63,289 nt of DNA from the NCBI GenBank assembly GCA_964504535.1, contig CAZDED010000009.1, positions 1 through 63,289 on the forward strand. The letters run 5' to 3'. The notes under the pieces were generated by a model. It was not told the DNA's origin and ran no database searches. It worked only from the letters and a program-made list of their open reading frames with translations. Source of the stretch: an uncultured Gammaproteobacteria bacterium (lineage in GTDB: Bacteria; Patescibacteriota; Microgenomatia; Levybacterales; GWA1-39-11). The translations under genes and the position numbers were made by a program. Positions 3,577 through 63,289 of this stretch are shown piece after piece (positions within the stretch are counted from its first letter, which is position 1; the number at the start of each line of letters is the position of its first letter).

Positions 3577-3601
3577 GACTCACAATTTCTAAATCTTTCT
3601 G

Positions 3602-3775: not shown

Positions 3776-3784
3776 TGCTATAAT
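3776..3784 (+). promoter_or_regulatory. Extended -10 promoter element (TGcTATAAT) about 11 nt upstream of the GT2 ATG
   Basis: The sequence tttGcTATAAT ends at 3784 and the first in-frame ATG is at 3796. This implies a leaderless or very short-leader mRNA. Confidence 0.4.
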
Positions 3785-3795
3785 TGAACCACACA

Positions 3796-4734: not shown

Positions 4735-4739
4735 TTTCC

Positions 4740-39918: not shown

Positions 39919-39921
39919 GAT

Positions 39922-40791: not shown

Positions 40792-40808
40792 ATAAATTCC
40801 ATTTCACG

Positions 40809-41867: not shown

Positions 41868-41869
41868 AT

Positions 41870-42109: not shown

Positions 42110-42111
42110 TT

Positions 42112-42729: not shown

Positions 42730-42770
42730 GCGTACTATTATACGCGAAATAGCGTAATTATGCAAGGGGT

Positions 42771-43907: not shown

Positions 43908-43909
43908 AT

Positions 43910-45427
43910 CTATGATTTTTTTAAATCACTAAGACCTGCAACAATTTCTCGTTCCAAAAGTTCAATTTTTTCTAAAATTAATTTTGGATCTTCATATTCC
44001 TCTTCAGTATGATCAGTCACTTTATAATGATTAATACTCAAATCAAGATTATCATTTTCAATCTCCTTTTTTTCAACATAGAAAAACTTACCCGAACGAT
44101 CATTATTCTTCTGTTCTTTTCTATGTTTCCATTTCTCAACAATATCTGGAATGTCATTTTCTTTTATTCTGCTTCGTTTGTCATCCAAACTATATCCATC
44201 TGCCTTCATGTCATAAAACCAAACTTTTTCTGTTTCTCCACCTTTAACAAAAATAAGAATCGCTGTGCTGACGCCCGCATAAGGCTTAAATACTCCACTA
44301 GGTAAGGATATAACTCCTTGAAGTTCACAATCATCTAACAACATTTTCCTTGCATGTCTATGAGCGTTACTTGAACCAAAAAGAACACCATCAGGGACAA
44401 TTACGCCTGCGCGCCCTCCGATTTTAAGTGATTTGATAATTCTATTTATAAAAAGAAGCTCGGTTTTGGTTGTCGCAAGTGAAAGTGACTCATTGATATC
44501 TCCCTTATCAATACTTCCTTTAAAAGGCGGGTTTGCCATAATGACATCAAAATGATTATCATCTTCATGCTTTTTAGAGAGAGTGTCCTTTTGTTCGATG
44601 TTTGGGCTGGATATTCCGTGCATCATTAAATTCATGAGTCCAATTCGCACCATGCTGTCATCCATATCGTACCCGTAAAATGTTTTTTCTTTTAGTTGTT
44701 TCCATTGTCTTTCATCGGTAAGTTTATCTCCTACCAACCCTCGAGTAAGTCCGTTTTCATCAATTTGTTGGTGCTCTTTACTTGTATGTTGAGTAAGAAT
44801 GTGTTGGTAGGCTCCAAGCAAGAATCCTCCCGTTCCACACGCTGGATCACAAATCGTATCACCAAGTTTTGGATCAACTAATTCGCAAATGAGCTGAATT
44901 ATGTGTCTGGGAGTACGAAATTGACCAAGTTTTCCGGCACTCGTTATCTCTGAAAGTAGATACTCGTATAAATCTCCTTGTGTATCTTGAAAGCCTTGAC
45001 CTGCAGATTCTTGCTTTGATATTTCTTCAAAAATTTCATCAATGATGTTTACTGCTTCAACTAATAGGGAAGGCTTTGAAATAATAAAAACAGCGTTACC
45101 CATATGCTTTGCAAAATGGCTTTCCTCATCTCCCAATGTTTTTAAGAAAGGGAAAACTTTGGTTTGAATATGTGTCAACATCTCTCCACCTTCCATATGG
45201 CGGAAATGACTCCATCTCAAAGCATCATTTTCTCCATTAAATATTGACTTATAAGCCTCTCCTGTAAATTTGGCATCTTGTCTTTTTTTAATATCAAATT
45301 GATCAAGCCTTTTCATAAAAAGAAGATATGATATTTGCTCAATTGCTGTTAGAGGGTTTGATATGCCACCGCTCCAGAATTTATCCCAAAGACGGTCGAT
45401 TGATGATTTAATTTTTGTATTAAGCAT
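43910..45427 (-). CDS. hsdM: Type I restriction-modification N6-adenine DNA methyltransferase subunit
   Basis: HsdM_N (SIDRLWDKFWSGGISNPLTAIEQISYLLFMKRL), motif I (DPACGTGGFL) and motif IV (NPPF). The start at ATG 45427 overlaps the hsdR stop by 8 nt; the track start is 45481. Confidence 0.92.
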   Translation of the reverse strand: MLNTKIKSSIDRLWDKFWSGGISNPLTAIEQISYLLFMKRLDQFDIKKRQDAKFTGEAYKSIFNGENDALRWSHFRHMEGGEMLTHIQTKVFPFLKTLGDEESHFAKHMGNAVFIISKPSLLVEAVNIIDEIFEEISKQESAGQGFQDTQGDLYEYLLSEITSAGKLGQFRTPRHIIQLICELVDPKLGDTICDPACGTGGFLLGAYQHILTQHTSKEHQQIDENGLTRGLVGDKLTDERQWKQLKEKTFYGYDMDDSMVRIGLMNLMMHGISSPNIEQKDTLSKKHEDDNHFDVIMANPPFKGSIDKGDINESLSLATTKTELLFINRIIKSLKIGGRAGVIVPDGVLFGSSNAHRHARKMLLDDCELQGVISLPSGVFKPYAGVSTAILIFVKGGETEKVWFYDMKADGYSLDDKRSRIKENDIPDIVEKWKHRKEQKNNDRSGKFFYVEKKEIENDNLDLSINHYKVTDHTEEEYEDPKLILEKIELLEREIVAGLSDLKKS

Positions 45428-48230: not shown

Positions 48231-48239
48231 AATTTAACT

Positions 48240-48248
48240 ATTTTAGCA
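48240..48248 (-). promoter_or_regulatory. Extended -10 element TGCTAAAAT about 9 nt upstream of the hsdR ATG
   Basis: The minus strand reads ...TTTGTGCTAAAATAGTTAAATTATG, which implies a leaderless or near-leaderless mRNA. Confidence 0.35.
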
Positions 48249-48279
48249 CAAAGCCAGCAATATTGATAATAGTTTGAGG

Positions 48280-48663
48280 CTAGTTCGATTTTTTCGTTTT
48301 TTCCTTCTGTTCCTTATCTTCAAGTTTTTTTGAGAGTTCTTCTAGTTGGTCTCTGGTTATAAGTACTTTGCTTGGCACAGACCCGACATAAGGCTCTATT
48401 ATTCCATTTTCAGAGAGAGCTTCCATAAGTCTCATTGCTCTATTAAAACCGATCTGCATTCTTCGTTGAAGTAATGACGCTGATACACGATCATGTTGCA
48501 AGGTAATCGTTACTGCTTTGTCATACAATTCGTCTTGGCTACCATCAATATTTGCTTCTTCAAATGCTTCTTCGAAAGACTGTTGATTGGTTAAAAAATT
48601 TTCAATAATTTTAATACGCTTTTCAAGCTCTTTTATTTTTTTTAATAACTCATCATTACTCAT
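48280..48663 (-). CDS. Stand-alone FtsK-gamma (winged-helix, KOPS-binding type) domain protein
   Basis: ELYDKAVTITLQHDRVSASLLQRRMQIGFNRAMRLMEALSENGIIEP is a clear FtsK_gamma signature, preceded by a coiled-coil. The start is placed at ATG 48663 (MSNDELL...); the track start is 48873. Confidence 0.65.
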   Translation of the reverse strand: MSNDELLKKIKELEKRIKIIENFLTNQQSFEEAFEEANIDGSQDELYDKAVTITLQHDRVSASLLQRRMQIGFNRAMRLMEALSENGIIEPYVGSVPSKVLITRDQLEELSKKLEDKEQKEKTKKSN

Positions 48664-48709
48664 ATTGAAATTGTACCACCAAAAAAATAAATAAGGGTAT
48701 AATTTATCT

Positions 48710-49432
48710 GTGATACGAAAACTTAAGAATTTATTTACTGATATTATTAGCGACTTTACCTCCTGTAAAAACAGGGCTGTATATCTTCTATCATTTTCTC
48801 CAATCAACAAGAAGTTTCTTTTTGCTACATTAATTGCCATATTCTTATTTACCATCTTCCGGTCTTCAAGCAAATATGAATTTTATCTTTATTTTTTAGA
48901 AATTATGTTTGTTAGTCTTATTACATTCATTATTTTTGTACAGTCTGATACTTACTGGTTTTTAAGAAAGAAGGCGTGGAGTTTTAAGCTTGTCGTTAAA
49001 AACAGGAAGAGCATACAAACCACAATCAAAAAAATTAAAGAACTTAAACTTGAGAAAGAGAAAAATCCAAGCGGTGCAATATATGTTACTGCATATAACG
49101 ATTTGGTAGGATATAAACCTCATGCACGAAGACTTGAAATAGAAATTATAATTTTACTTGCAATTCTTTTTTTCACTTTCCCACCATTCTTTATTTTCAA
49201 TCTTGCCCTTTTCTGCATGATGTTTTTTTATGTAACGTTTTATGAAAGCCAAGCCCCAACCTATGTATGGCAAGATATAATGACTCTGACAAATAGCGTT
49301 AAGTCTTTATATGAAGATGATCCAGAAAACTGCAGAAAATTTATCCTTGAAAATGATTCACTATATGTTCGCGAGCTTGGCAATATTTATAGAACTGTAA
49401 GAAATTATAAAAGCAATATCTTTAATCATTAA
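48710..49432 (+). CDS. Hypothetical multi-TM membrane protein
   Basis: 240-aa ORF divergent from the FtsK-gamma gene. The start is uncertain. Confidence 0.4.
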   Translation: MIRKLKNLFTDIISDFTSCKNRAVYLLSFSPINKKFLFATLIAIFLFTIFRSSSKYEFYLYFLEIMFVSLITFIIFVQSDTYWFLRKKAWSFKLVVKNRKSIQTTIKKIKELKLEKEKNPSGAIYVTAYNDLVGYKPHARRLEIEIIILLAILFFTFPPFFIFNLALFCMMFFYVTFYESQAPTYVWQDIMTLTNSVKSLYEDDPENCRKFILENDSLYVRELGNIYRTVRNYKSNIFNH

Positions 49433-50715: not shown

Positions 50716-51759
50716 TTATCTATCTTTTCCTCTTAATACAAGCGAAAGAGTTCTTAGCTCTGAATTATTTAACTTATCAAACGGTTTTCCAAGTATATCG
50801 GAGGGGATTCCAAACCCGTCAACAATAGCTCTTTCCCCAACTCTCAAAAGGCGCGCCCTACTGTTTGAACGATCGTCATTTACCTCAATTCTACCAAATT
50901 CGTTGTATTCTCTTGCAGCCTGTTTTAAATCGAAATTTGCGCTTCTTCTTATTACCTTGCGCCTTTCTTTTTTAGTGCGTGTACCTAAATTTTGCTGTTC
51001 AGTAAATTCTGTTAAACCTTCTTTCATACAATTTCTAACAAGCGGGCTTTTATTTGAAGTTAAAAAAAGTTTTCTCAATAAGAAGTCTCTCATATTGGGA
51101 GGCCCTTCCTTAGGGGAAAGACGAATTATAGATGATTCTGTTCTTGGAGGAGGAAGAAAACTGTCTCTTCCTAATTCCATTAGAACATCTATATCAAAGA
51201 ATGATTGAGCAAGGAGTGTTAATTTTCCAAAGCCAAGACTGTCTTCGTTTTGTGCTTGAATTGATTCGGCTAATTTTCTTCCTACAACCATTGTTGCACT
51301 TTCAATATCAAGTTCCGCTATGCGACGCATAAACGGTTCGGTTATGTGATAAGGGATACTGGCAATAATCTGTGTATCATTTTCGTCTTCTTTTGCAACA
51401 AAATCTTGCAATCTAAGTGCAAGAGCATCCCCATAAACCACATGTAAATTTGAATATCGATTTGAAATTTCAGATAAAATAGGTTCATATCTTCTGTCTA
51501 TTTCTATTGCAACAACTTTAGTTGCGTTTTTAGCTAATGCTTCCGTTAATTGTCCGATTCCGGCACCGACTTCAAGAACTTTATTTCCGGGACTTATTGA
51601 ATGGGTTAGCAAATTTATGGCTTTGTCATCAATTAAAAAATGCTGTCCTAGATTTTCATTTGGTACAATGTCTAACGATTCAATACGACCCAGAACTACT
51701 TGTTTCAGCAGCATTGAATTATCCGGCGTCTGTTGGTTTAAGCTTTCTATTCTATTCAT
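50716..51759 (-). CDS. rRNA adenine N6-dimethyltransferase family protein (KsgA/Erm fold) with a C-terminal extension of roughly 90 aa
   Basis: LGQHFLID (QNFL-like), LEVGAGIGQLTE and IIASIPYHITEPF (NIPY-like). At 347 aa it is longer than my recalled 260-290 aa for KsgA/Erm. Confidence 0.75.
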   Translation of the reverse strand: MNRIESLNQQTPDNSMLLKQVVLGRIESLDIVPNENLGQHFLIDDKAINLLTHSISPGNKVLEVGAGIGQLTEALAKNATKVVAIEIDRRYEPILSEISNRYSNLHVVYGDALALRLQDFVAKEDENDTQIIASIPYHITEPFMRRIAELDIESATMVVGRKLAESIQAQNEDSLGFGKLTLLAQSFFDIDVLMELGRDSFLPPPRTESSIIRLSPKEGPPNMRDFLLRKLFLTSNKSPLVRNCMKEGLTEFTEQQNLGTRTKKERRKVIRRSANFDLKQAAREYNEFGRIEVNDDRSNSRARLLRVGERAIVDGFGIPSDILGKPFDKLNNSELRTLSLVLRGKDR

Positions 51760-51904: not shown

Positions 51905-52678
51905 TTAAATTGGTTGAAGATTAATTATGGAATCAGACGCTTCTTCGAGTGCCTTTATCTCATCACTCCATTTTTCATTCATAGCCATCCGATTAAAAAG
52001 TAGATCAAATACCATGTCTAAAATTGGATTATTTTGATGTGTTTTTGAAAAATCCATTATTGATGTTTTATTAAAAGTAAACATTTTGTTTAGAAGATCC
52101 AATTTAATTAAATTACCGTTTTTTAGATAAACAAAAATTTCTCGTCTTGGTTTTCCGTACTCAACATTAACTTGCCATGGAATTTTTCTTTCAAACAGAT
52201 AAAACCATAAGTCTATATCGTGTATCCCCAAATCAAATTTCGGATTGATCGAATAATCTCTTTGTGGTTTCAAACCAAACCGATAGCTTTTAATCTTTTT
52301 AATTTCGTGCGTTTTGATGTTTCTTTTTAAAAACTGGACTATTGGATTATATCTTTCGAGGGTAGATTGATATAAGATTAATTTTCTTTTCTGTGCTAAG
52401 TTTTCAAGTATCTTTGCTTCATTCGATGAAAAACAAAGAGGTTTTTCGCATAGAACATTATAATCATTCATTAACAATTTCTTTACAATTTCATAATGAT
52501 TCTGGATTGGAGTAGAAACAATAACCAAATCAACGGGTTGTCGGTAATCTATAAATTCATCAACATTGCTAAAATATATTCTGTTCATGACCGGATTAAC
52601 GTCCACAATATATTTCCCATTTAATAAACTGTCATAAATTTTCCCCATCTTTCCGAATCCGATAATTGCAATATCCAT
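51905..52678 (-). CDS. Gfo/Idh/MocA-family NAD(P)-dependent oxidoreductase
   Basis: MDIAIIGFGKMGKIY Rossmann N-terminus and the LCEKPL motif. Confidence 0.7.
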   Translation of the reverse strand: MDIAIIGFGKMGKIYDSLLNGKYIVDVNPVMNRIYFSNVDEFIDYRQPVDLVIVSTPIQNHYEIVKKLLMNDYNVLCEKPLCFSSNEAKILENLAQKRKLILYQSTLERYNPIVQFLKRNIKTHEIKKIKSYRFGLKPQRDYSINPKFDLGIHDIDLWFYLFERKIPWQVNVEYGKPRREIFVYLKNGNLIKLDLLNKMFTFNKTSIMDFSKTHQNNPILDMVFDLLFNRMAMNEKWSDEIKALEEASDSIINLQPI

Positions 52679-52679
52679 A

Positions 52680-53735
52680 TCATTTCTCTACAAAATACAA
52701 AAGCTTTTTTGATAATTCTTGCCAAGATAAGTCTTTTGCCAACTTTATATTGCTTTTTTTTGCAATATATTTGAGCTTTAATGCGCTTTTTATTCCCTCC
52801 TTCCAGGAAAATACATTACCGTCAACCATTCGGCCTGTCTTTCCATCCTTTAGGAGCCATTCCATTCTTCCTTTACCCATTACAATTGGTGATCCAATTG
52901 CTAAATATTCACTTATAACTATCGGGCTACAGTCAACTTCAACCGGAAAAACAAATACGTCCGCTATATTCATATAGTCAGGGACTTTTTCTATAGGAAT
53001 CATGCCGCATTTAATGATGTTTTTTCTATTTGGAATTTCCTTTAAAAGAGGGCCATCTCCAACTACGAAAAACACTTGCCTATCGTCTATTGCTTCGCTA
53101 ATTACTTTTAAATTATCGTACCATTTTCCAACTTTCCCACAATACATTATTATCTCTTTTCCCATTAAGTCAACGTTGTATTTTTTCTCAAAATACTTTT
53201 TTAACAATGCTATTTTCGCAGATGAATAAGGATAGAAAAGAGATCTGTCATATCCATTCGGAATAATTATAGTATCTTTCGTTTTTAGACCCCAATTTTT
53301 CATTGCTTCGAGAATTACCGGTGACTGTGCAATAACCTTAGATGCTCTTTGCAAAATATCCAAATAGCTATATCGTAGAAGGTAATACTGTTGATTTACG
53401 CCAAATTCCTTTAAATACATTTCATCATACCAGTCTATACAATCAAATATAATTGGAGTTTTAATTTCCTTGCCGATAATTAGGTTGCTAAGCGGATTGT
53501 CAATCATCAAATAATCAAAACTGCGATTAGAAAGAAACTTTTTTAATCTTTCTCGCTCCTTCGTAACAACATCAATATCTTTCAAAATTTTATGTTTAAA
53601 GAAATCAAATTCGATTTCTTTTGAATACTTTAATAAATATTGCTCCCTTTGCGGGAATCCTACTAGATATGATTTAGCGAAGTGTTGAAGGCTTTGGGTG
53701 TATGTTTTATCTCCAATTTTTAAAACTTTTTTCAT
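52680..53735 (-). CDS. GT-B glycosyltransferase (family 4 / group 1)
   Basis: 351 aa; C-terminal domain ...FFVVGDGPLLKEI...VFVFPVEVDCSPIVISEYLAIGSPIVM (E-x7-E-type region). Confidence 0.7.
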   Translation of the reverse strand: MKKVLKIGDKTYTQSLQHFAKSYLVGFPQREQYLLKYSKEIEFDFFKHKILKDIDVVTKERERLKKFLSNRSFDYLMIDNPLSNLIIGKEIKTPIIFDCIDWYDEMYLKEFGVNQQYYLLRYSYLDILQRASKVIAQSPVILEAMKNWGLKTKDTIIIPNGYDRSLFYPYSSAKIALLKKYFEKKYNVDLMGKEIIMYCGKVGKWYDNLKVISEAIDDRQVFFVVGDGPLLKEIPNRKNIIKCGMIPIEKVPDYMNIADVFVFPVEVDCSPIVISEYLAIGSPIVMGKGRMEWLLKDGKTGRMVDGNVFSWKEGIKSALKLKYIAKKSNIKLAKDLSWQELSKKLLYFVEK

Positions 53736-54727
53736 ATAAAAAATTCTTCAAGAGCCTTTCTTATTGTTGAAATTTCATTCATGGTTAAATTCCATCTGCA
53801 TGGAATTGAAACAATTGAAGAAGTGATATCTTCATACTCATCCCTTACCGAAACGGGAAGCACATCATTATCGTAATAAACTTTAGTTTCAATTCCTTTA
53901 TTTTTCATATGTTTTATAAATTTGTCTCTATTATTCAAAATAATATTAAAAGTTGAAAATATGTGCCTGCTTCCTTCCTGTTCTTCCAAAAAAGGTTGAC
54001 TACCGGGAATTAGGGGAATAAGTTCTTTTGCAATATCTCTTTGAATATCCGTTCTCTTGTCATAATCTTTAAGCTCGTCTAAAAGAAACTCTGCCTTAAC
54101 TTCATCAAATCGAAGATTTAGCGCTACATTTTCGGTTAGTTTTCCGCCGTTTCTACCTGATTCAATAAATACTTTTAATTTTTCGTAATAATCTTTATTA
54201 TCGGTAACAACGGCTCCTCCGTGGCCACAAGTGTGGAGCGTTTTGGTCGGATAAAAACTATAACAACCCAATAATCCAAATGTTCCCACTTTTTTCCTGT
54301 TTAATTCCGCACCAAACGATTGGCATGCATCTTCGATAAGAACACTTTTATTAATTGTTTTAACTAATTCATTTGGTTGACCGTATAGATGTGTTATTGT
54401 ATAAAGTTCATTTTTCGTTGTTGCAAGATGCTTTAAGAAAAGCATGCGTTTGAAATTTATTTCATAATTTAACAAACGAGCGGGTTGGTAAGTTGCCGGA
54501 AAAGTATACGGATCAACGGAAAGCTTGCGATATTTATCCCTCAATACCCAATAGCATGCAAGAAGCGCTGAGGTTCCGCTGTTTGTTAATATCACATATT
54601 TTACACCAAGATATTCTTTTATCTTTTCCTCGAGCTCTTTTATTTTTATTCCATCAATCCAATCTCCGCTATTGTATCTCGTACTTTTATGTTGAGATGC
54701 AAGTTTATAAAGAGGGATTTTAATCAT
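53732..54727 (-). CDS. DegT/DnrJ/EryC1/StrS-family PLP-dependent sugar aminotransferase
   Basis: VILTNSGTSALL, EDACQSFGA and SFYPTKTLHTCGHGGAVVT (PLP lysine context). Confidence 0.8.
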   Translation of the reverse strand: MIKIPLYKLASQHKSTRYNSGDWIDGIKIKELEEKIKEYLGVKYVILTNSGTSALLACYWVLRDKYRKLSVDPYTFPATYQPARLLNYEINFKRMLFLKHLATTKNELYTITHLYGQPNELVKTINKSVLIEDACQSFGAELNRKKVGTFGLLGCYSFYPTKTLHTCGHGGAVVTDNKDYYEKLKVFIESGRNGGKLTENVALNLRFDEVKAEFLLDELKDYDKRTDIQRDIAKELIPLIPGSQPFLEEQEGSRHIFSTFNIILNNRDKFIKHMKNKGIETKVYYDNDVLPVSVRDEYEDITSSIVSIPCRWNLTMNEISTIRKALEEFFI

Positions 54728-54736
54728 ATAACGTAC

Positions 54737-55456
54737 CTACATTATTTCTGAAGCAATTTTTAATGCTTTAGGAGTCAATGGAGAATAATTGTTTATTATG
54801 AAAGCTTCTCCATATTCGCCATTGATGGAAGCGCCCCTAATACTTGCTACGGATCTTAATCTTCTTTCAATCCAATCTTGGTTCATACTATGCTCATCTT
54901 TTACTGATGTGTAAAAATTAAACGCTTCAATTTTTCGATTTATATTTTCTTTCGTAAGTAAGGATACAACCGAATAATCAAATGGTGTGGTCATCTCCAA
55001 ATCAACTTCTCCTTGCAAGAGTAGGGGAGCTCTTGATTTTGTAATGCCCCCCACAACGGCACAGCCGCTTTGAAAATTTGCTTCCGGTACTATCCTTCCC
55101 AGCGTTCTGTGGTCAATATGTTTATCTTGAGAATAGTGAGTGAAAATTACGTCTGGATTAATTTTTCTAATTTCTTTAATTGTTTGCTGTAAAAGAACGC
55201 CCTCATTTTTTCCGACCTCCATGTCATGAAAGGGAAGAAAATTAATTTTATATCCAAGGACATCGGAACTTTTATTTGCTTCTATTAGGGAACGCTTTTT
55301 TCTTTTTGCTTGTGTTTCTTTATAGAAGTAGCCTTGACAATTTTGTGTGTAAAATGTAACGAATACTTCATGCCCCTTTTTGATCAGCTTATCTATAGTT
55401 GCTCCACACATAATAATTTCATCGTCCGGATGCGCAACGAGTATTAATATTTTCAT
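54737..55456 (-). CDS. LmbE/PIG-L-family N-acetylglucosaminyl deacetylase
   Basis: MKILILVAHPDDEII and HIDH metal-binding motifs. Confidence 0.8.
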   Translation of the reverse strand: MKILILVAHPDDEIIMCGATIDKLIKKGHEVFVTFYTQNCQGYFYKETQAKRKKRSLIEANKSSDVLGYKINFLPFHDMEVGKNEGVLLQQTIKEIRKINPDVIFTHYSQDKHIDHRTLGRIVPEANFQSGCAVVGGITKSRAPLLLQGEVDLEMTTPFDYSVVSLLTKENINRKIEAFNFYTSVKDEHSMNQDWIERRLRSVASIRGASINGEYGEAFIINNYSPLTPKALKIASEIM

Positions 55457-56148
55457 ATATTTTCTTTAATCTCTGCGATGTTTTTCTCTCTTTCCTTACA
55501 ATTGGCACATTCATGGCATGAGGATATCTTCCCGTCGTTGTATTGGGCATTCCAACACGAAACCGTTAAATCAAGCATTCCTGCATCGGAAAGTCTTTTT
55601 AACAAGGCTTTTTTCGTGAGAGATCTTATTGGGAGGAACACCTCCATAGGCCGCAAGAAGGATTTTGATAGGATGTCTTCAACTCCTTTGTGGTGAAAAT
55701 AATCGTTATCTCCAAATACAAAATTGTCGTCTAACATATAACCTATTGCTATACCGTCCCCATCGATTTGCTCGGCATATATTCCTGCAATTACCATAAA
55801 AAGAGTATTTCTTCCCGGAACCCAAGCATCGGAATCGTCTTTGGACTCTTCACCAAGTAGTTTACTTCTGGTTAATTTCTTAAGAAGGTCTGTTTCGATA
55901 ACTTGCGTTGGTTGAAATCCAAGTTGGACCGGTACGTTTTCTACCAGTTGTCTTTCTGCCGTAGCAGAAGATTGTCCGTAATCAATAAAAAGAGGGTACA
56001 CATCTTTTCCTTGTTCTTGAAGAATTAATCCGGCTACCGTACTATCAACACCACCCGAATACATTAAAACGACTCTTCCGGTATTTTCCCTCTGAAGACC
56101 TCTCAGCAGATCTTCGTTCATTTTTGTTTTTATAGGTTCTAATTCCAT
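55453..56148 (-). CDS. queC: QueC-family PP-loop ATPase (7-cyano-7-deazaguanine synthase-like, divergent middle region)
   Basis: VLMYSGGVDST PP-loop, FIDYGQ, VPGRNTLF and the 4-Cys zinc motif SCWNAQ...SSCHECANCKER. Confidence 0.75.
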   Translation of the reverse strand: MELEPIKTKMNEDLLRGLQRENTGRVVLMYSGGVDSTVAGLILQEQGKDVYPLFIDYGQSSATAERQLVENVPVQLGFQPTQVIETDLLKKLTRSKLLGEESKDDSDAWVPGRNTLFMVIAGIYAEQIDGDGIAIGYMLDDNFVFGDNDYFHHKGVEDILSKSFLRPMEVFLPIRSLTKKALLKRLSDAGMLDLTVSCWNAQYNDGKISSCHECANCKEREKNIAEIKENI

Positions 56149-56151
56149 TTA

Positions 56152-57168
56152 TTAATTTAGTTGTATTAATGAAAAAAACTTTTCAAGATTTAATTTCTTT
56201 ATTCTCTCAGATGATAAATCATTATAAATACTATAACGTAAATGATGCATTTTAACATAACCTTGCATTTCATTCAAAGCTTTTAATACTATTGGTCTGT
56301 TTAGTCCTTCTAAAACATATTTAATACCAACAGAATCCATGAATGATTTTATTTCTATAATGTCCTGTCCCTGAATAAATGCTGTTAACAAAACGCTAAA
56401 AGCTATCATTTCTCCATGCAAAAATTTTTTTAATTTATTTTCCATAGCATATGTAAAGAAGTGTTCCCCTCCCTCTTCAGGCCTACTATTTCCATAAAAA
56501 TTACATAGCTGGACTTCCATAGCGAGAAACTGCACAAGGTAAATTAACCCCTTTTTTGAAACTTTTCTAATTTCACTTGATTCCGTGAGTAATCCTCTAA
56601 ATATTGATTCTGCCATTAAGGCTACGCTTTCGGAATATTTTTCATCTTCTGCTGCCTTTTTTCTATTGTTTGCATATTTCCAATCAAACAACCCGGTATA
56701 TATTGAAAGAACGTCACCGCAACCGCTTAGATGAAATCTTTTTGGACTTTTTTTAAGTAAATTATAATCTAGCAAAACCAAATCTGCTTTTTTTGATGGG
56801 AAATAGGTGACACACCCCTTATCTCTTAATCCGGTGCAATCAACTAGAAAAGCATCTGTTGAAATAATAGTTGGAACACATATTATTTCAAGGTTCCAAT
56901 TATAGGCGATAAAACGGCCCAAATCACATACTCTTCCACCACCCAATGCATAAATAACCTTTCCTACATGTTTTTCTTTTACTAATTTTTTAGCATATTC
57001 TTTTTCTGCGGATTTAATATAAATTGTTTGAACAATATTTAGATTTTTTATTATATTTTTGCTTTTCTTTAATGATGCAGGGCTTGTTATTAGAATTACG
57101 GGACGGGAATCAAATAGTGTATCTATACTTCCCCATTTTATTTTCGGTAGATTTGAAATATATCTCAT
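56152..57168 (-). CDS. Glycerol-1-phosphate dehydrogenase (AraM/EgsA)-like enzyme of the DHQS/Fe-ADH superfamily
   Basis: YALGGGRVCDLGRFIA (GGGxxxD), VPTIISTDAF and SGCGDVLSIYTGLFDWKYA (GxGDxxxxxxxxxDW). Confidence 0.6.
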   Translation of the reverse strand: MRYISNLPKIKWGSIDTLFDSRPVILITSPASLKKSKNIIKNLNIVQTIYIKSAEKEYAKKLVKEKHVGKVIYALGGGRVCDLGRFIAYNWNLEIICVPTIISTDAFLVDCTGLRDKGCVTYFPSKKADLVLLDYNLLKKSPKRFHLSGCGDVLSIYTGLFDWKYANNRKKAAEDEKYSESVALMAESIFRGLLTESSEIRKVSKKGLIYLVQFLAMEVQLCNFYGNSRPEEGGEHFFTYAMENKLKKFLHGEMIAFSVLLTAFIQGQDIIEIKSFMDSVGIKYVLEGLNRPIVLKALNEMQGYVKMHHLRYSIYNDLSSERIKKLNLEKFFSLIQLN

Positions 57169-57170
57169 GA

Positions 57171-58703
57171 TTAATTAGTAGATAGAATAAAAGGATGGAA
57201 TAGGTCCATGTTTCTGAAAGCCAAATGAAAATATAATTCGGATGCAAATTTATCTATAACTTTTGATGGGTCTGGATATCTTGAAGGGTCGAGTGAATGT
57301 TGAAAATTTGCAATCATTTGTTGCAAGGTTTCTCTTTTAGATTTTTCTCCTTCATTTGTGCGTTTTAAGAAAACCTGCAGGTTGGCATTCATAGTTTCAT
57401 TACCATCTGCAAGCTCAGCTTCTAATTCACCCAATAAAGGCAACATATCGTTAAAACCTGCAGCAAATTCAGGATGAGTAAATGCCTGATACCCATAAAA
57501 GCTAAGCAACTCAGGGGGAACGTCCAATAGCCTTCCTTTTCTCTTAAACTCATGATAAAGAGGAGTATTCGGTTGCATTTCAAGATTGGCAATAATGTAT
57601 CCACTTGAGCCCAGATCCTTAAGAAGCTTTACTTCTTCGCGAATGTTTTTTCTGTTCTGCCAGTCCAATCCGACTATGTATGTTGAAACAACATTAATTC
57701 CAGCATCTTGCAATCGTGCATTAACAGCTTTCAAGTCAACTCCTTCATTTTTTTTATATCCTTTAATTAAAGATTCGACTCCAATATTTACGGTACTGAG
57801 CCTTAACGCACCTTTTGTTAACTCATCTATATCATACTTATCAATTACCTTTGAAGATGTTGTGCTGACCAGTTCACATTGAAATGGCAGATCCCTACAA
57901 AGTCTAAGAACGTCTTTCCACAATTTCACATTGCCCATCCCTTGAGGTTCTGCAATACTTACGGTAAAGGTCTCACTTTCGGGAGCAATCGTGTCATGTG
58001 CAGAAATTATTGCATCTTTAATCTCGTCAGCGGCAAATGGCGCCCTATATTCCTGTCCGTACTGTGCTGTTGAAGGGCAGAAATCACACCCATACATACA
58101 TCCCAAACTACTGACCAAAAGACCATAACTTCCTCTCTTTGTAATTCCGTTAAAACGGGTTTCGGTGTCTGAACGAATTGTTGCGACTTTTAATGGATCA
58201 TTGGTAGGTTGGCCAATTATTTTTCTTAAATCGGTAACCTGATCTCCTCTTAATCTATAGTCAGATAAATTTACCGACTCTTCAAGAAGAGCGCCAACAG
58301 AAGAGGCAATTACCTTAACCTCCGGATGTTTATCTCTTACGAATTGTGCAATTTCTCTAAATGTACTGTATCCGCTTAAATATGTTGAAATAACAATATG
58401 TCCATACCTACCGGTATCAAGCTCTTCCCTTGCTCTTTCAAGAGTTATTGGTTCTGGAATTACCGTATTTGGAAGGTTTATATTTGCGCTCATCCATTCA
58501 CCGGGAGCATTTTGTGGATACCAATCAAATGAAAACGTGTCTTCTCTTCCTTGAGTTTTGGTTTGTTGAATATAATCGGCAAGAAATTGAGAATCATAAT
58601 ATTTATCAAATCCTTTTCTTTGTAATCCTTCTAATTTTTCAGTGGGATTTGTTGTGTTGTATGACGGATCTTGAGCTATAGTAAATAGTACTTCTTTACT
58701 CAT
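57171..58703 (-). CDS. Radical SAM enzyme with a roughly 190-aa N-terminal Rossmann-like (B12-binding-type) domain
   Basis: CxxxCxxC cluster (LGCMYGCDFCPS) after an N-terminal domain (HIVISTYLSGYSTFREIAQFVRDKHPEVKVIASS). The class-B assignment rests on architecture only. Confidence 0.75.
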   Translation of the reverse strand: MSKEVLFTIAQDPSYNTTNPTEKLEGLQRKGFDKYYDSQFLADYIQQTKTQGREDTFSFDWYPQNAPGEWMSANINLPNTVIPEPITLERAREELDTGRYGHIVISTYLSGYSTFREIAQFVRDKHPEVKVIASSVGALLEESVNLSDYRLRGDQVTDLRKIIGQPTNDPLKVATIRSDTETRFNGITKRGSYGLLVSSLGCMYGCDFCPSTAQYGQEYRAPFAADEIKDAIISAHDTIAPESETFTVSIAEPQGMGNVKLWKDVLRLCRDLPFQCELVSTTSSKVIDKYDIDELTKGALRLSTVNIGVESLIKGYKKNEGVDLKAVNARLQDAGINVVSTYIVGLDWQNRKNIREEVKLLKDLGSSGYIIANLEMQPNTPLYHEFKRKGRLLDVPPELLSFYGYQAFTHPEFAAGFNDMLPLLGELEAELADGNETMNANLQVFLKRTNEGEKSKRETLQQMIANFQHSLDPSRYPDPSKVIDKFASELYFHLAFRNMDLFHPFILSTN

Positions 58704-59697
58704 AATTAGTTTTAATACCTCGTACTAAGCTTTTATTTAAAGAGTTTATGAAATTATTAACGGAATCGGGTAGGTGTTCTAGATTATATCCACCCTCAAA
58801 AACCACACAACTTGGAATATTAAGTCCTCCAATTTTATAACCCAAATAGCCATAATCATCTGCGGTAAGTCCTGCTAACGGTGTTCTTCCAGGTGGATGA
58901 TCTTCCTCATGTCCATCGAATCCCGCGCTTACTACTAATACATCTGGATTATAACTATCTATAGTTTTAATTGCTCTTCCAAATTTTTCTTTATATCTAT
59001 CTGTAGAAACACCGATATCAACAGGGATATTAACAATTAAGCCTTTTCCCAGTCCCTCACCAATCTCTTCTGGAAAACCTGTGAATGGAAATGCTATGCT
59101 AGGGTCTGCATGGACAGAAACAAACAGCGCCTCTCCAGAATTAAAAAAAATATCCTGTGTCCCATCTCCATGGTGAATATCAAAATCTAATACTGCAACT
59201 TTAGCACCAGCATTTCGTAGGTTACGAGTAGCTAATGCTGCATTATTAATAAAACAAAAACCATGATAAAAATCATGCCCCGCGTGATGTCCAGGGGGAC
59301 GCGAGAGTGAAAAAACCAATTTAGTTTTCTTTTGAATTAGTAGCTCTGAAGAATGAATACTATTACTTGCAGCTAGAACTGCCTGATCATAGGTACCCTT
59401 TAATATTGGTGTTGAATACGCGGTGTCACTACAAAACTTAGTAAACGCTTCATCCCCCACTTTAAGTAACTCGCTGTATCTTTGAAGCAACTCAATCATT
59501 TCAGGTGAGTGGGTCTCTTTTATTAAGGGGTGTTCATATATATTCGGTGCTTCAACTTTTATGTTAAGCCCGCTCCCAAGAAGAGCATTTTTTACCAATT
59601 CTACCCTTTCAGCAATTTCACATGGATCATCTTTACGCGTTTTGTGTTGCGCATGTTTTTCATCGTAAACTAAAAATACATCATGCTCTATTTCCAT
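58696..59697 (-). CDS. Histone-deacetylase-family amidohydrolase (acetylpolyamine/acetoin-utilisation type)
   Basis: RPPGHHAG, DFDIHHGDGTQDIF and SAGFDGHEEDHP. Confidence 0.85.
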   Translation of the reverse strand: MEIEHDVFLVYDEKHAQHKTRKDDPCEIAERVELVKNALLGSGLNIKVEAPNIYEHPLIKETHSPEMIELLQRYSELLKVGDEAFTKFCSDTAYSTPILKGTYDQAVLAASNSIHSSELLIQKKTKLVFSLSRPPGHHAGHDFYHGFCFINNAALATRNLRNAGAKVAVLDFDIHHGDGTQDIFFNSGEALFVSVHADPSIAFPFTGFPEEIGEGLGKGLIVNIPVDIGVSTDRYKEKFGRAIKTIDSYNPDVLVVSAGFDGHEEDHPPGRTPLAGLTADDYGYLGYKIGGLNIPSCVVFEGGYNLEHLPDSVNNFINSLNKSLVRGIKTNYE

Positions 59698-60887
59698 AAA
59701 TCTGTATTAACTTGTCCTGTTTCAAATAACTTGCCCATTAATTCATTTGATGGAATTGCTCGAGAAGCATTTTCTAGAAAAGTCCTAATATCATCCAAAT
59801 ACATACTTGTTTGTAATCGGGAATCTCGTTGTCGAATTGTCACAGAATCATTTTTTACACCCTCTTCATCTGCTGTAAATACATATGGCACACCGATACC
59901 ATCTGCCTTTCTATATCTACTACCAATAGAGCCCGTTTCTAGAATTGGTGTTCGAATACCGTATTCTTTTAATAGTTCACTTACGAGTATGGACATATTG
60001 TGCAACTCAGGTGTTTTCTTAAGGGGAAAAACCATTCCCTGCACGGGAGCCAATCTTTCGGGTAAATGTAGAACGACTCTATCTCCAATTTTCTCCAATG
60101 CTTGTCCCAATGCTATATAGAAAGGTCTGTCGCTTGAAAAAGAAATCTCAAAAACCTCGGGATATTTACCGTTCACTTCCAGTTTTGTTCCTGTCGCAAG
60201 ACTATGTCTTTTAAAATCGTAGGATGAGCGGTATTGAATTCCGAGCAATTCCATTTCATTTCCGTCCTCGTCCGGTACATATAAACCAAATGCTTTGTTG
60301 GCATAAAATGGTTTATCAGATTCAATCTTTTCTCTAAAATTCATACTACCTTCTTTAATACCAACACTATTCATTAATACATAAGATAAATGCTGTAGGT
60401 AATCGACTGTAGCGGCAACATCTACATCTTTTGTCTGCATAAATATATGTCCTTCGTGTCCTGTATATTGTCTTGTTCTCGTTTGCCATTCAGTTTGTCT
60501 ATCATTAGGCAATACGATTCCCGACTGAAAAACTCTAAATGGTAAATTTCCCCTATAATATTCGAGCAGTCTTCTAAAAAGAGGGTATATGGTTGTAGCG
60601 AGTTCACCTCTACCCATCAGCGCTTGACCGTCTGAAGTTTGTGTTTGGAACATCTCGTCATTAAATTTCTGTAAATGTCCACTTGCTTCCCAGGCTTTTC
60701 GGGGATAAAGGACCGGTGTCTCAATCTCATCAAAGCCTTCATCGATAAAAACTTCCCTGAATTGTTGTTCCATATTGGTTTTAAGGGCTTTACCCATAGG
60801 ACCATATGTCATAAAACCAGCCACGCCGTATGGACTGTGCTCCGGCCCCCATAAAAATCCGTTTGAAACTAAATGTTCTTTTAACAT
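59688..60887 (-). CDS. Class II glycyl-tRNA-synthetase-like paralogue (catalytic core plus anticodon-binding-like domain), divergent motif 2
   Basis: GlyRS-type N-terminus (GFLWGPEHSPYGVAGFMTYGPMGKALKTNMEQQF), motif-3-like PEVFEISFSSDRPFY, and a class IIa C-terminal domain (APVQGMVFPL...GSIGSRYRKADGIGVPYVFTAD...VTIRQRDS). Confidence 0.75.
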   Translation of the reverse strand: MLKEHLVSNGFLWGPEHSPYGVAGFMTYGPMGKALKTNMEQQFREVFIDEGFDEIETPVLYPRKAWEASGHLQKFNDEMFQTQTSDGQALMGRGELATTIYPLFRRLLEYYRGNLPFRVFQSGIVLPNDRQTEWQTRTRQYTGHEGHIFMQTKDVDVAATVDYLQHLSYVLMNSVGIKEGSMNFREKIESDKPFYANKAFGLYVPDEDGNEMELLGIQYRSSYDFKRHSLATGTKLEVNGKYPEVFEISFSSDRPFYIALGQALEKIGDRVVLHLPERLAPVQGMVFPLKKTPELHNMSILVSELLKEYGIRTPILETGSIGSRYRKADGIGVPYVFTADEEGVKNDSVTIRQRDSRLQTSMYLDDIRTFLENASRAIPSNELMGKLFETGQVNTDLWK

Positions 60888-60890: not shown

Positions 60891-61634
60891 CTATATTCCT
60901 CTTTTGTCTCCCCAAAGCAATACATGCAAACGAGGGGTCAATCGCCATCCTCGCTCCTTTACTCCTTCAACAACTTCTAGTGCATGTGTTTTAATATCAT
61001 CATCTGTTGTCCCTTCAGGCATGATAATAATTTTTGACGGATCAAGACTGCAATCTTCAACCAATTGAGAAATTTCATCCAGATCTCTTTCGCTTTTTAC
61101 AACAAATTTAAAAGTTGTATTGGGTAGCTCATTAAACTGAGATAGCACTTCCGGTTTATATCTCCTGTTAAGCGCATTACCTGAATTTTCCAGCTTAGGA
61201 GAAACATTAAATTGACATTTATCTGCCAGTGTTTGAGTAGGAGGAATAGTTCCGTTTGTTTCAATTTCAATATCCCAGCTCGGTATCAAATCGACAAATT
61301 TACTAATTCTTTCTTGTTGTATCAATGGTTCACCACCTGTTATGACTAATCTTTTTACAGGGTATCTCTCGATTTCTGAAAGTGTTTTTTGGTAATCCCA
61401 GTTCTCGGCATCTTGCCAAAATTCTTTGGACTTTCTATCCCAGGTATATTTCGTATCGCACCAACCACATTGTAAATTACAAAAATTAAGGCGAAGAAAA
61501 ACTGCCGGCTTTCCTATGCTTTGACCCTCGCCTTGGATTGTAAAAAACACACCATCTCCGGATACCTTAAACTCATCAGCATTCATTCTCATCGATTCAC
61601 GCTCTGATATTGTTGGTGTATATATTTCTGTCAT
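60891..61634 (-). CDS. queE: 7-carboxy-7-deazaguanine synthase (radical SAM)
   Basis: FTIQGEGQSIGKPAVFLRLNFCNLQCGWCDTKYTW. The start at ATG 61634 forms an ATGA overlap with the queD stop; the track start is 61691. Confidence 0.85.
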   Translation of the reverse strand: MTEIYTPTISERESMRMNADEFKVSGDGVFFTIQGEGQSIGKPAVFLRLNFCNLQCGWCDTKYTWDRKSKEFWQDAENWDYQKTLSEIERYPVKRLVITGGEPLIQQERISKFVDLIPSWDIEIETNGTIPPTQTLADKCQFNVSPKLENSGNALNRRYKPEVLSQFNELPNTTFKFVVKSERDLDEISQLVEDCSLDPSKIIIMPEGTTDDDIKTHALEVVEGVKERGWRLTPRLHVLLWGDKRGI

Positions 61635-61990
61635 TCTTTGCTTTCTTTGCCTGGTCCTTGAAAGGCAACAAAACTGCTTGGAGTTTCCCAAAGCTTAATT
61701 TCGTACAGTGGCATATCTCCTTCTAACTGCTCCCATATCCACATAGCTATATTTTCTGCTGTCGGTTGCTTAATAATTTTATTAATAAAAGCGTGGTCAA
61801 GTTTTTGGAGCACCTTTTTATTAACAGAATTTTTTATTTCGGTAAAATCCATGACCATTCCGTTTTTTTGGACAACGCCTTTTAAAATAACTTGTAGTTT
61901 ATAGGTATGCCCATGTAAATTAGCGCAAGGACCATTATAGTTACGTAACCTGTGGGCAGAATCGAAAGTAAACTGTTTAGCAATAAACAT
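61631..61990 (-). CDS. queD: 6-carboxy-5,6,7,8-tetrahydropterin synthase
   Basis: 119 aa; FTFDSAHRL...CANLHGHTYKLQV (PTPS/QueD signature). Confidence 0.88.
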   Translation of the reverse strand: MFIAKQFTFDSAHRLRNYNGPCANLHGHTYKLQVILKGVVQKNGMVMDFTEIKNSVNKKVLQKLDHAFINKIIKQPTAENIAMWIWEQLEGDMPLYEIKLWETPSSFVAFQGPGKESKE

Positions 61991-61992
61991 AA

Positions 61993-62778
61993 TTAATTGT
62001 GTTTAACATCGTCAATACTTGTATATCGAGCGTAGGCATTATGGTTATGTATTGATTCGAAACTTTCACACTCTACAGTGAACGAAAGAATGTTTTTGTT
62101 CTTTTTTATCGAAAGAGCAGTATCTCTAACCGCATCTTCAACAAATTTAGGATTTTCATAGGATTTTTCGGTTACATATTTTTCATCAGGCCTTTTTAGT
62201 ACAGGGTATATCTCACAACTACCGTTTTTTTCAATCGTTTTTATTAATTCATCTATCAATAAGTCCCCTTTTAGAAGTGCGTCTACCGTTATAATCGATC
62301 TTTGGTTGTGAGCATTAAATTTACTTATTGCTTTACTGCACGGGCACAAAAGCATAACAGGAACTTTCACTATTATCCTTTGTTCCGAATCTCCGGAATT
62401 AACCCTTGAATATATTTTGCATTCATAATCAACGAAACTACTTTTTCTGGAAACAGGAGCCTCTTTTTTCAGGAAATATATAAAAGAAATTTCAAGATAA
62501 GCATTGTCTGCCTGTAATTCCTTTTTTGCTTCACTCGCTATTGATTTCAATTTTTCAAACGTTAGAATATTTTCCCGATTCCTAAAAAGTATTTCTACAA
62601 ACCTACTCATATGATGTCCTTTTAATGAATGGCGTAAGTCTGCAAAGAAATTAACAGATGCCGTAACCTGTTGGGTATCTTTTTTGTGGGGGATTAACAA
62701 AGGAAGCGATATCTTGGTAATACCAACCCTATCTAGTCGAAGTCCTCTTTTATCTTTTAGTTTTTGTATGTCTTTCAT
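61993..62778 (-). CDS. folE2: GTP cyclohydrolase I type 2 (FolE2/MptA family)
   Basis: 261 aa; GHHMSRF, LLCPCSK and NHNAYA motifs. Confidence 0.85.
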   Translation of the reverse strand: MKDIQKLKDKRGLRLDRVGITKISLPLLIPHKKDTQQVTASVNFFADLRHSLKGHHMSRFVEILFRNRENILTFEKLKSIASEAKKELQADNAYLEISFIYFLKKEAPVSRKSSFVDYECKIYSRVNSGDSEQRIIVKVPVMLLCPCSKAISKFNAHNQRSIITVDALLKGDLLIDELIKTIEKNGSCEIYPVLKRPDEKYVTEKSYENPKFVEDAVRDTALSIKKNKNILSFTVECESFESIHNHNAYARYTSIDDVKHN

Positions 62779-62965: not shown

Positions 62966-62994
62966 TTGACTTCACTGAGACGGTCTGATATATA
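62966..62994 (+). promoter_or_regulatory. Sigma-70-type promoter (TTGACT, 17-nt spacer, TATATA) facing the pilin gene
   Basis: Direct reading; it is divergent from the operon promoter. Confidence 0.5.
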
Positions 62995-63027
62995 TTGATA
63001 CAATAATTTAATTGTTCGGTTTTATGG

Positions 63028-63053
63028 AAACTGCTCTCCGGGGCAGTTTTTTT
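63028..63053 (+). terminator. Intrinsic terminator (AAACTGC-tctccggg-GCAGTTT followed by TTTT) between that promoter and the pilin gene
   Basis: A perfect 7-bp stem followed by a T-run, about 30 nt downstream of the -10 box and 34 nt upstream of the pilin ATG. Confidence 0.55.
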
Positions 63054-63086
63054 GTATTTACCGCTTTTTAGAAAGGGGGTGAAGGC

Positions 63087-63289
63087 ATGAAAAAACTAAT
63101 AACATTACAATCAATTATTTTAACTTCATTAATAGTCGCTACTCCTGTGTTTGCACAAGCTGCAGATGTTACAAAAGTCCAAAGCTTTATAGAAAATATT
63201 ATCCAGATTCTAACGACCATGGCAGGATTACTAGCGTCCGGCTTTTTTGTATGGGGTGGAGTCAGATACATAACATCAAGTGGAAATCC
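63087..63289 (+). CDS. VirB2/TrbC-like type IV secretion pilin (partial; runs off the window)
   Basis: Hand translation gives MKKLITLQSIILTSLIVATPVFAQAADVTKVQSFIENIIQILTTMAGLLASGFFVWGGVRYITSSGN... It has a signal peptide ending AQA and a hydrophobic helix followed by GG-x-x-Y-I-T-S-x-GN, typical of TrbC/VirB2 pilins. The SD is AAAGGGGGTGAAGG. Confidence 0.55.
   Translation, partial: MKKLITLQSIILTSLIVATPVFAQAADVTKVQSFIENIIQILTTMAGLLASGFFVWGGVRYITSSGN

Follow-up and report, generated by a model that had tools for sequence, protein, structure and literature searches.

A conserved gene cluster of Patescibacteria that may join 7-deazaguanine to an amino sugar

The window analysed here is the whole of contig C9 (CAZDED010000009.1, 63,289 nucleotides; assembly GCA_964504535.1), from a 1.27-Mb genome of 28 contigs that is 100% complete by marker genes. 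Its minus strand carries a 12-gene operon that runs from 62778 down to 51905. We propose, with a probability of about 0.45, that this cluster joins 7-deazaguanine to an amino sugar by aminoglycoside- and mycothiol-style chemistry, and that the six genes at 51905–57168 form, with the adjacent radical SAM gene, the conserved core of a specialised-metabolite cluster. A more detailed version, which we regard as doubtful, is that the product would be a diamino- or amino-sugar glycoside resembling an aminoglycoside, linked as an amide or amidine to C7 of 7-deazaguanine by a repurposed QueC, exported from the cell and encoded on a mobile cassette.

The genes are ordered FolE2, QueD, QueE, a truncated GlyRS-like gene, an HDAC-family gene, a 510-aa radical S-adenosylmethionine (SAM) enzyme, a glycerol-1-phosphate dehydrogenase (G1PDH)-like member of Fe-ADH_2, a QueC-family gene, LmbE, DegT, GT4 and a short Gfo/Idh/MocA oxidoreductase (Gfo). 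Distances between them range from a 10-nt overlap to a 9-nt gap, and they therefore form a single operon. One junction, QueD/QueE, departs from this spacing; its overlap varies with the start codon chosen. A 4-nt overlap provides translational coupling of the QueC-like and LmbE genes. An initial annotation of this DNA had placed six adjacent genes at 51905–57168 (GT4, LmbE, DegT, Gfo, a DHQS/Fe-ADH-superfamily enzyme and a large radical SAM enzyme). All six families are present and intact, and its coordinates were correct except that the radical SAM gene (57171–58703) lies just outside that range. The QueC-like gene lies inside it, though the annotation's title did not mention it. The features are as follows.

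51905..52678, minus strand: Gfo/Idh/MocA oxidoreductase, short form, 257 aa (PF01408, E = 7e-14)
52680..53735, minus strand: GT4 glycosyltransferase, retaining GT-B (PF13692 and PF00534)
53732..54727, minus strand: DegT/DnrJ/EryC1 pyridoxal phosphate-dependent sugar or cyclitol aminotransferase (PF01041, E = 1.5e-45)
54737..55456, minus strand: LmbE/PIG-L zinc N-deacetylase (PF02585, E = 4.5e-23)
55453..56148, minus strand: divergent QueC-family ATP pyrophosphatase (PF06508, E = 1.5e-32, 113 bits)
56152..57168, minus strand: G1PDH/AraM-like NAD(P)- and metal-dependent polyol(-phosphate) dehydrogenase, Fe-ADH_2 family (NCBIfam G1PDH model, 130.8 bits)
57171..58703, minus strand: radical SAM enzyme, 510 aa, with an N-terminal Rossmann (B12-domain-like) domain and AprD4-like architecture
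58696..59697, minus strand: HDAC-family deacetylase (PF00850, E = 1.6e-64)
59688..60887, minus strand: truncated GlyRS-like class II aminoacyl-tRNA synthetase (aaRS) paralogue (GlyRS model, 227 bits; cut-off 312)
60891..62778, minus strand: QueE, QueD and FolE2 (PF04055 with PF13353; PF01242; PF02649)
50716..51759, minus strand: KsgA/Erm-family rRNA adenine dimethyltransferase (PF00398; ksgA model, 150.7 bits)

A conserved core with variable surroundings

We compared the loci around orthologues of the G1PDH-like protein (L numbers below) by scoring them against all 15 proteins of the window. The protein has about 100 orthologue clusters at 41–67% identity, nearly all from Patescibacteria metagenomes. 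Seven genes (radical SAM, G1PDH-like, QueC-like, LmbE, DegT, GT4 and Gfo) were neighbours in at least 10 independent contigs, with per-gene identities of 41–73%. The carriers are Levy-, Roizman-, Shapiro- and Gottesmanbacteria, Microgenomates, an unclassified bacterium, and metagenome-assembled contigs labelled Pedobacter and Methanoperedens. Because the same seven families adjoin one another in this many contigs from different lineages, their adjacency is not due to chance. The identities of all core genes also co-vary among loci, with L007 at the top for every gene and L017 at the bottom, and the sugar genes stand in fixed synteny with the QueC-like, G1PDH-like and radical SAM genes. The comparison of co-occurrence recommended in the initial annotation thus finds the sugar genes travelling with deazaguanine genes in at least 10 contigs.

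Every locus had a deazaguanine source, mostly FolE or FolE2 with QueD and QueE. Two carrier genomes have no QueD anywhere; in these the cluster is flanked by one or two YhhQ-type transporters of queuosine precursors (TIGR00697, 121 bits) and a small T-fold protein. The latter, of about 107 aa, lies beside the transporter at L002:6825-7151 and L004:6229-6549, matches FolE and QueF-II models equally weakly (~ 30 bits) and may handle imported preQ0. A reduced set was found in a Chloroflexia locus on a 360-kb contig (L017), consisting of an ABC-2 exporter, G1PDH-like, QueC-like, LmbE, GT4, QueD, QueE and a methyltransferase. The innermost core is therefore G1PDH-like, QueC-like, LmbE and GT4. The exact sequence of the L017 G1PDH-like protein has no database record.

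The remaining genes vary between loci: GlyRS-like, HDAC, aminoglycoside phosphotransferase (APH)- or fructosamine-type kinases, GNAT acetyltransferases, methyltransferases, a second GT-B or GT2 glycosyltransferase, SPASM radical SAM, DUF4037, and MFS or ABC exporters. A fixed core with swappable tailoring genes and an exporter is the pattern of secondary-metabolite cluster families. None of the compared loci contained a flippase, polymerase or initiating transferase for a surface glycan, and no homologue of tRNA-guanine transglycosylase (TGT) or DpdA was found in or near any of them. The cluster as a whole is rare and mobile and occurs mostly in Patescibacteria with tiny genomes. The operon is flanked in the window (39433–49432 and 62966–63289) by a type I restriction-modification system and a stand-alone FtsK-gamma protein, which fits carriage on a mobile element.

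The accessory genes differ in how far they are shared. The HDAC gene is present in L004 and L013 and absent from L002, L003, L007 and L008; the GlyRS-like gene, a candidate accessory amino-acid ligase judging by its family, is absent from L007, L008, L011, L014 and L017. In L007, from Levybacteria, it is replaced (3573–5648) by a different class II aaRS-like gene with a tRNA-synt_2b core together with an Asp/Glu racemase, a swap that suggests attachment of a different, possibly D-, amino acid. L011:4316-8364 and L014:4484-8336 encode SPASM-domain radical SAM, GT2-like and DUF4037 proteins, to which L014 adds an APH-type kinase and L011 an extra GT4. These are further tailoring genes of an aminoglycoside-like kind.

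The KsgA/Erm-family gene begins 145 nt downstream of the operon and is the sole RrnaAD-family gene in the genome; linkage with the cluster is also seen in L002, L004, L007, L013, L014 and L089. Two other carrier genomes likewise have it as their sole RrnaAD copy, a third has an extra canonical KsgA, and a fourth has a single copy apparently away from the cluster locus. It may be a housekeeping RsmA, a resistance gene, or both.

The core enzymes and a proposed pathway

FolE2, QueD and QueE are assigned to the families that lead from GTP to 7-carboxy-7-deazaguanine (CDG). The QueC-like protein, the only QueC-family member in the genome, scores 100.5 bits against TIGR00364, under the cut-off of 150.3. 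It keeps the SGGxDS PP-loop, the VPGRN motif and four Cys, all invariant, with a first Cys spacing of 12 residues instead of 8. When the canonical motifs YxQxHxxE and YPDC (PMC13082051) are taken as reference, the His of the first is replaced by Ser, Thr or Ala with the Glu displaced by one position, and the second is gone, with FGD[NS] in its place. The gene is also kept in the two genomes without any QueD and hence without CDG synthesis. Because of the score below cut-off, the loss of two motifs and this retention, the enzyme is probably not a plain QueC; a canonical QueC converting CDG to preQ0 was rejected on the first two grounds. Two QueC homologues, RoyL (bioRxiv 10.64898/2026.04.15.718813) and Cap9, the latter in protein deazaguanylation, form CDG amides, and the cluster protein is a sequence-based candidate for coupling the CDG carboxyl group to an amine. 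The initial annotation had named either the GlyRS-like or the QueC-like protein as the ligase for the amine freed by LmbE. A ligase acting there is plausible, and the loci favour the QueC-like protein, which belongs to the core and to the minimal Chloroflexia set, over the GlyRS-like protein, which is missing from several of them.

Outside the cluster, the genome encodes a bacterial-type TGT (C1:117351-118448) and one YhhQ/Vut_1 transporter (C7:7207-7695). QueF and QueA were not found in the genome. Whether its tRNA carries queuosine must hinge on salvage or on some unusual process.

The GT4 family is discrete: we obtained 82 matches among 5.8 billion proteins, after which the score falls from 146 to 59 bits, and it was absent from 400 other genomes sampled in the phylum. 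Judging by their equal lengths, at least 20 contigs with this GT4 are apparently shared with the G1PDH-like orthologue list. A predicted model (predicted local distance difference test, pLDDT, 89) was compared with solved structures by Foldseek. The top match was MshA (3c48, E = 2.8e-16; 3c4q, template modelling (TM) score 0.77), and sucrose-phosphate synthase, GlgM, HepE, PimB' and BshA also matched at TM about 0.7–0.77, with only small differences in score among them. Of these nearest structures, MshA, sucrose-phosphate synthase, GlgM and BshA act on small soluble acceptors, and several of these are phosphorylated. The NCBIfam matches listed for the protein included no model for MshA or BshA. 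K201 and D268-x7-E276 are invariant across orthologues, as are many aromatic and acidic residues of the N-terminal domain. We infer that this enzyme is an N-acetylhexosamine transferase.

Two GT4 relatives occur without deazaguanine genes. One (47% identity, on the contig of P0195) lies with LmbE, DegT, two Gfo/Idh/MocA genes, an unknown protein of 268 aa and, transcribed divergently, a gene of the inositol monophosphatase (IMPase) family, in a locus that looks like a stand-alone amino-pseudodisaccharide module; the other (56% identity) adjoins Gfo only. The initial annotation had counted sugar genes without deazaguanine genes as evidence against its proposal. They do exist, and we read them not as a refutation but as a separable amino-sugar module, whose acceptor would therefore not be a deazapurine.

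The GT4 and LmbE genes form an intact pair that always co-occurs. H9, D11, D12, H113, D115 and H116 of LmbE (HPDD and HxDH motifs) are invariant in 10 sequences, and the worry that either enzyme might lack catalytic residues is dispelled by the alignment of orthologues, in which all are invariant. The top NCBIfam match of LmbE is BshB1, at 78.9 bits and a cut-off of 182.5; among solved structures it matched 2ixd, diacetylchitobiose deacetylase and BshB. The DegT protein has invariant K162 and D133. It is about equally near to scyllo-inositol transaminase and to QdtB and WbpE, which aminate sugars at C3 (7b0d, glutamine–scyllo-inositol transaminase, 110 bits; QdtB, 103; WbpE, 74). The Gfo protein matched UDP-N-acetylglucosamine (UDP-GlcNAc) 3-dehydrogenase best in NCBIfam (70.9 bits, far under the cut-off), is nearest in sequence to the solved structure 7bvj, and has GxGxxG, EKP and H153 invariant in 7 orthologues. 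From these relationships, its likely role is to turn a hydroxyl group of a sugar or cyclitol into a ketone for amination by DegT.

The CxxxCxxC motif of the radical SAM enzyme (C202, C206 and C209) is invariant across orthologues. Searching by sequence gave no match to a solved structure and, at E values up to 0.01, no match to the B12-binding family PF02310. PF02310 does occur in about 30% of the members of the nearest Atlas clusters, and residues 1–165 of the predicted model (pLDDT 90.7) superpose on the B12 domain of IcmF (Z 11.9, root-mean-square deviation (rmsd) 2.5 Å). The best match of the model was AprD4 with paromamine (6fd2; Z 21.9, rmsd 3.3 Å, 372 of 453 residues), at a sequence identity of only ~ 14%. 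TsrM came next (Z 18.9), and TsrM, CysS and OxsB were all about 3 Z units under AprD4. Enzymes of the HpnI/HpnK/HpnJ type carry out a ring contraction leading to the hopanoid cyclitol ether, and the only support for such a step here is a 25-bit match to the HpnJ model, which we treat as a lead. Going by the structural model, the enzyme appears nearest to the paromamine diol dehydratase AprD4, which together with an NADPH reductase deoxygenates the glucosamine (GlcN) pseudodisaccharide paromamine (PMC5461906). With AprD4 as nearest structure and no B12 domain detected by Pfam, the B12 radical SAM methyltransferase of the initial annotation is not favoured.

The product of 56152–57168 had been listed as a member of the 3-dehydroquinate synthase (DHQS)/Fe-ADH superfamily in a module said to hold aminocyclitol-type enzymes, and comparison with profiles for G1PDH, 2-deoxy-scyllo-inosose synthase (DOIS) and 2-epi-5-epi-valiolone synthase (EEVS) had been recommended. 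It falls on the G1PDH side. By sequence, it matched only G1PDH-type and glycerol dehydrogenase structures. The family profile gave 103–113 bits with G1PDH-type structures, 40–70 with GldA, at most 30 with DHQS (N-terminal NAD domain only), and no match to DOIS or EEVS at E values up to 10. The GGGxxxD NAD motif is conserved and the metal ligands D152, H236 and H251 are invariant. On sequence evidence, then, we assign it to the G1PDH/GldA branch of dehydrogenases and not to the carbocycle-forming cyclases; sugar-phosphate cyclases, whether DOIS, EEVS or other, were excluded by both sequence and family profile. The initial annotation had seen in it the likeliest source of the acceptor, a role that its family makes plausible. 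No myo-inositol-phosphate synthase (MIPS) was found in the genome, and an inositol-derived acceptor made in the host was rejected for that reason; matches to the IMPase family were uninformative.

Distant homologues of the G1PDH-like protein (~ 30% identity) recur beside distant LmbE genes in Poribacteria, Abyssobacteria, Planctomycetota, Deltaproteobacteria and Spirochaetes (L059:9968-13712, also L070, L023, L066 and others). The L059 set consists of a sigma-54 regulator, a cupin, Fe-ADH_2, a PALP enzyme, RidA, LmbE and a ceramidase-like protein, and looks like a catabolic operon for an N-acetylated amino-polyol or amino sugar. We left these pairs out of the evidence, given their low identity and catabolic-looking context.

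Together these assignments suggest a pathway, in which the families and their conservation are observed and the substrates and the order of steps are our proposal. FolE2, QueD and QueE would make CDG. The GT4 would move an N-acetylhexosamine, probably N-acetylglucosamine (GlcNAc) from UDP-GlcNAc, onto a small soluble alcohol. The best candidate for this acceptor is a polyol phosphate, for example sn-glycerol-1-phosphate; these bacteria otherwise lack it, and the G1PDH-like enzyme could supply it. LmbE would remove the acetyl group and expose the 2-amine of a glucosamine glycoside, and Gfo and DegT could put in another amine by way of a ketone. Remodelling of the glycoside, for example by deoxygenation, may fall to the AprD4-like radical SAM enzyme, with an NAD(P)H enzyme reducing the resulting ketone. 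The divergent QueC would then adenylate the C7 carboxyl group of CDG and couple it to a sugar amine in place of ammonia. Finally, the variable genes (aaRS-like ligases, HDAC, APH-type kinases, GNAT, methyltransferases, additional glycosyltransferases and MFS/ABC exporters) would decorate, protect or export the product. The order of GT4, LmbE and ligase that the initial annotation had put forward is partly supported, by the intact co-occurring pair, the proximity of GT4 to MshA and a plausible ligase; its thiol, cyclitol and methylase details are not supported.

Points against the proposal and competing explanations

Several observations weigh against this pathway. The structural likenesses at 12–16% identity speak for fold and not for substrate. 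The G1PDH-like protein reaches 130.8 bits at an equivalog cut-off of 413 (NF002022) and is therefore not simply EgsA or AraM, and in L017 it is present without the radical SAM gene, so that the two are not an obligatory pair. The QueD-less genomes probably import preQ0 or preQ1 rather than CDG (PMC5372724); the coupling could therefore be an addition to a nitrile and not an activation of a carboxyl group. HuiG, a GT4-type enzyme, N-glycosylates a deazapurine directly with GlcNAc (PMC7439116), and the literature that we searched describes no product joining 7-deazaguanine to an aminoglycoside-style amino sugar.

HuiG is the precedent for the main rival, a huimycin-type N-glycoside, which we consider rather unlikely. 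Here a working QueC would make preQ0, and the GT4 would put GlcNAc straight onto the deazapurine, at the exocyclic N2 or at N9. The attached sugar would be remodelled by LmbE, Gfo, DegT and the radical SAM and G1PDH-like enzymes, and the GlyRS-like protein would acylate the freed amine. The genes for huimycin comprise those for preQ0, one for a methyltransferase and one for HuiG, the enzyme that adds GlcNAc to the 2-amino group (PMC7439116), and its family is reported with PF13439-type glycosyltransferases. Class I methyltransferases lie in or beside several of our loci, and the invariant aromatic and acidic residues in the GT4 N-terminal domain could stack on a base. However, close GT4 relatives lie with LmbE, DegT and Gfo where no deazaguanine gene is near, and the QueC-like protein has neither the His of YxQxHxxE nor YPDC, scores below the QueC cut-off and is kept in QueD-less genomes, where there is no CDG to convert. 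The core G1PDH-like enzyme would also be left without a clear role. A modification of nucleic acids is less probable again: the cluster would make a bulky queuine-like base or would itself modify RNA, and such a base could be put into tRNA by the genome's one TGT or could act on the ribosome along with the KsgA-family methyltransferase. This would agree with a genome that has a TGT and a YhhQ homologue without QueF or QueA, with a sole RrnaAD-family gene directly after the operon and cluster-linked in many loci, and with the anticodon-binding domain that the GlyRS-like protein keeps. Yet the absence of TGT and DpdA from the loci and their surroundings argues against it, a cluster missing from 400 other genomes of the phylum is unlike housekeeping modification, the MFS/ABC exporters and the strong variation in tailoring genes speak for a small molecule that is secreted, and one carrier genome has a second, canonical KsgA. 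Dpd-type DNA modification was rejected: no locus has DpdA or TGT, and the sole genomic TGT is on contig C1.

A housekeeping cofactor like mycothiol or bacillithiol, that is, GlcN-O-(glycerol phosphate or cyclitol) acylated by the aaRS paralogue, would be formally mirrored by GT4, LmbE, the aaRS paralogue and a nearby GNAT in the places of MshA, MshB, MshC and MshD, and MshA is indeed the top match of the GT4 model. We nevertheless think this very unlikely, as the aaRS paralogue is GlyRS-like rather than CysRS-like and is dispensable, LmbE is well under the BshB1 cut-off, the distribution is sporadic with mobile-element genes adjoining the cluster, and the deazaguanine genes, invariably linked as they are, would be left without a function. 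Nothing points to the thiol envisaged in the initial annotation, and the cluster has no cysteine ligase. Ordinary O-antigen or S-layer genes that merely sit beside queuosine genes are the least credible explanation. Surface-polysaccharide loci commonly contain GT4, DegT, Gfo and LmbE families, and there are NCBIfam matches to TuaC, WcaI, PseC and LegC, but these are weak and all far under their cut-offs. The sugar genes keep a fixed synteny with the QueC-like, G1PDH-like and radical SAM genes, the discrete GT4 family is confined to this type of cluster and absent from the 400 sampled genomes, and the flippase, polymerase and initiating transferase of a surface glycan are in no compared locus. 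The possibility, raised at the outset, that the sugar genes are of this common type was therefore dropped.

Significance and relation to known systems

To our knowledge, GlcNAc transfer and deacetylation in the style of aminoglycosides and mycothiol have not been found to meet 7-deazaguanine biosynthesis, and Patescibacteria are thought to have almost no secondary metabolism. LmbE, PIG-L, DegT, glycyl and Patescibacteria appear in neither of two 2026 surveys, one of QueC proteins and one of deazapurine clusters, and a literature search that combined CPR/Patescibacteria with deazaguanine listed no paper in which the phylum is named. A cluster that is conserved there, tied to exporters and tailored variably would give a concrete lead on how episymbionts of this phylum compete with or manipulate their neighbours. 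If the product is a C7-linked amino sugar, it would be a new class of natural product from the first defined antibiotic-type pathway typical of Patescibacteria. Candidate new activities include amino-sugar ligation by a member of the QueC family, radical SAM chemistry of the AprD4 type outside actinomycetes and a biosynthetic role for a G1PDH-like dehydrogenase. With only six or seven genes, the minimal Chloroflexia set is compact enough to be expressed directly in another host.

In its logic the cluster resembles three known systems: the synthesis of mycothiol and bacillithiol, that of aminoglycosides at its paromamine and apramycin steps, and the deazapurine clusters for huimycin and roseomycin. 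It departs from each in a defining feature, having no cysteine ligase, no cyclase and no canonical QueC. As in our proposal, the route to mycothiol and bacillithiol starts with a retaining GT4 that adds GlcNAc to a small alcohol, and an LmbE zinc deacetylase then releases the amine for acylation by an ATP-dependent ligase. The cluster GT4 is nearest to MshA with BshA also scoring high, and BshB1 is the top NCBIfam match of LmbE. In contrast, there is no thiol, the candidate ligase is of the QueC family and the acyl group would be a deazapurine carboxylate. The cluster proteins also score far under the equivalog cut-offs, and the cluster is rare, mobile and variably tailored rather than housekeeping.

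In aminoglycosides, GT4-type GlcNAc transfer followed by LmbE-type deacetylation is carried out by BtrM/BtrD and NeoD/NeoL. The paromamine branch of 2-deoxystreptamine aminoglycosides shares with the cluster the GT4 and LmbE pair, a DegT aminotransferase and dehydrogenases, and aminoglycoside clusters share accessory genes such as APH-like kinases, GNAT, an rRNA methyltransferase and exporters. C3'-deoxygenation by AprD4/AprD3 (PMC5461906) is the closest parallel to the radical SAM model. Unlike those clusters, ours has no 2-deoxy-scyllo-inosose synthase or other cyclase, its genome has no MIPS, and a deazaguanine unit would be added. Huimycin and dapiramicin clusters (PMC7439116; bioRxiv 10.64898/2026.04.15.718813) likewise combine preQ0/CDG genes with a GT4-type glycosyltransferase using UDP-GlcNAc and with methyltransferases. 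They differ in their actinomycete hosts and canonical QueC (HuiB is 72% identical to ToyM), and they have no LmbE, DegT, Gfo, G1PDH-like or radical SAM tailoring genes.

Among characterised families, archaeal EgsA and bacterial AraM are the closest to the G1PDH-like protein by sequence and profile and share its NAD motif and Asp/His/His metal site, but at ~ 30% identity it forms a separate clade of about 100 proteins tied to the cluster. RoyL, from the pathway of roseomycin and peptidyl-7-deazapurines, and Cap9, from a type IV CBASS, belong to the QueC family but join the carboxylate of CDG to an amine rather than forming the nitrile, the kind of reaction that we propose here. RoyL keeps the Tyr/His/Glu triad of YxQxHxxE, whereas the cluster protein has lost the His and shifted the Glu, and the putative amine would belong to an amino sugar rather than to a lysine or a protein N-terminus. 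If the proposal is right, the cluster would add a third case in which the QueC scaffold serves as a ligase.

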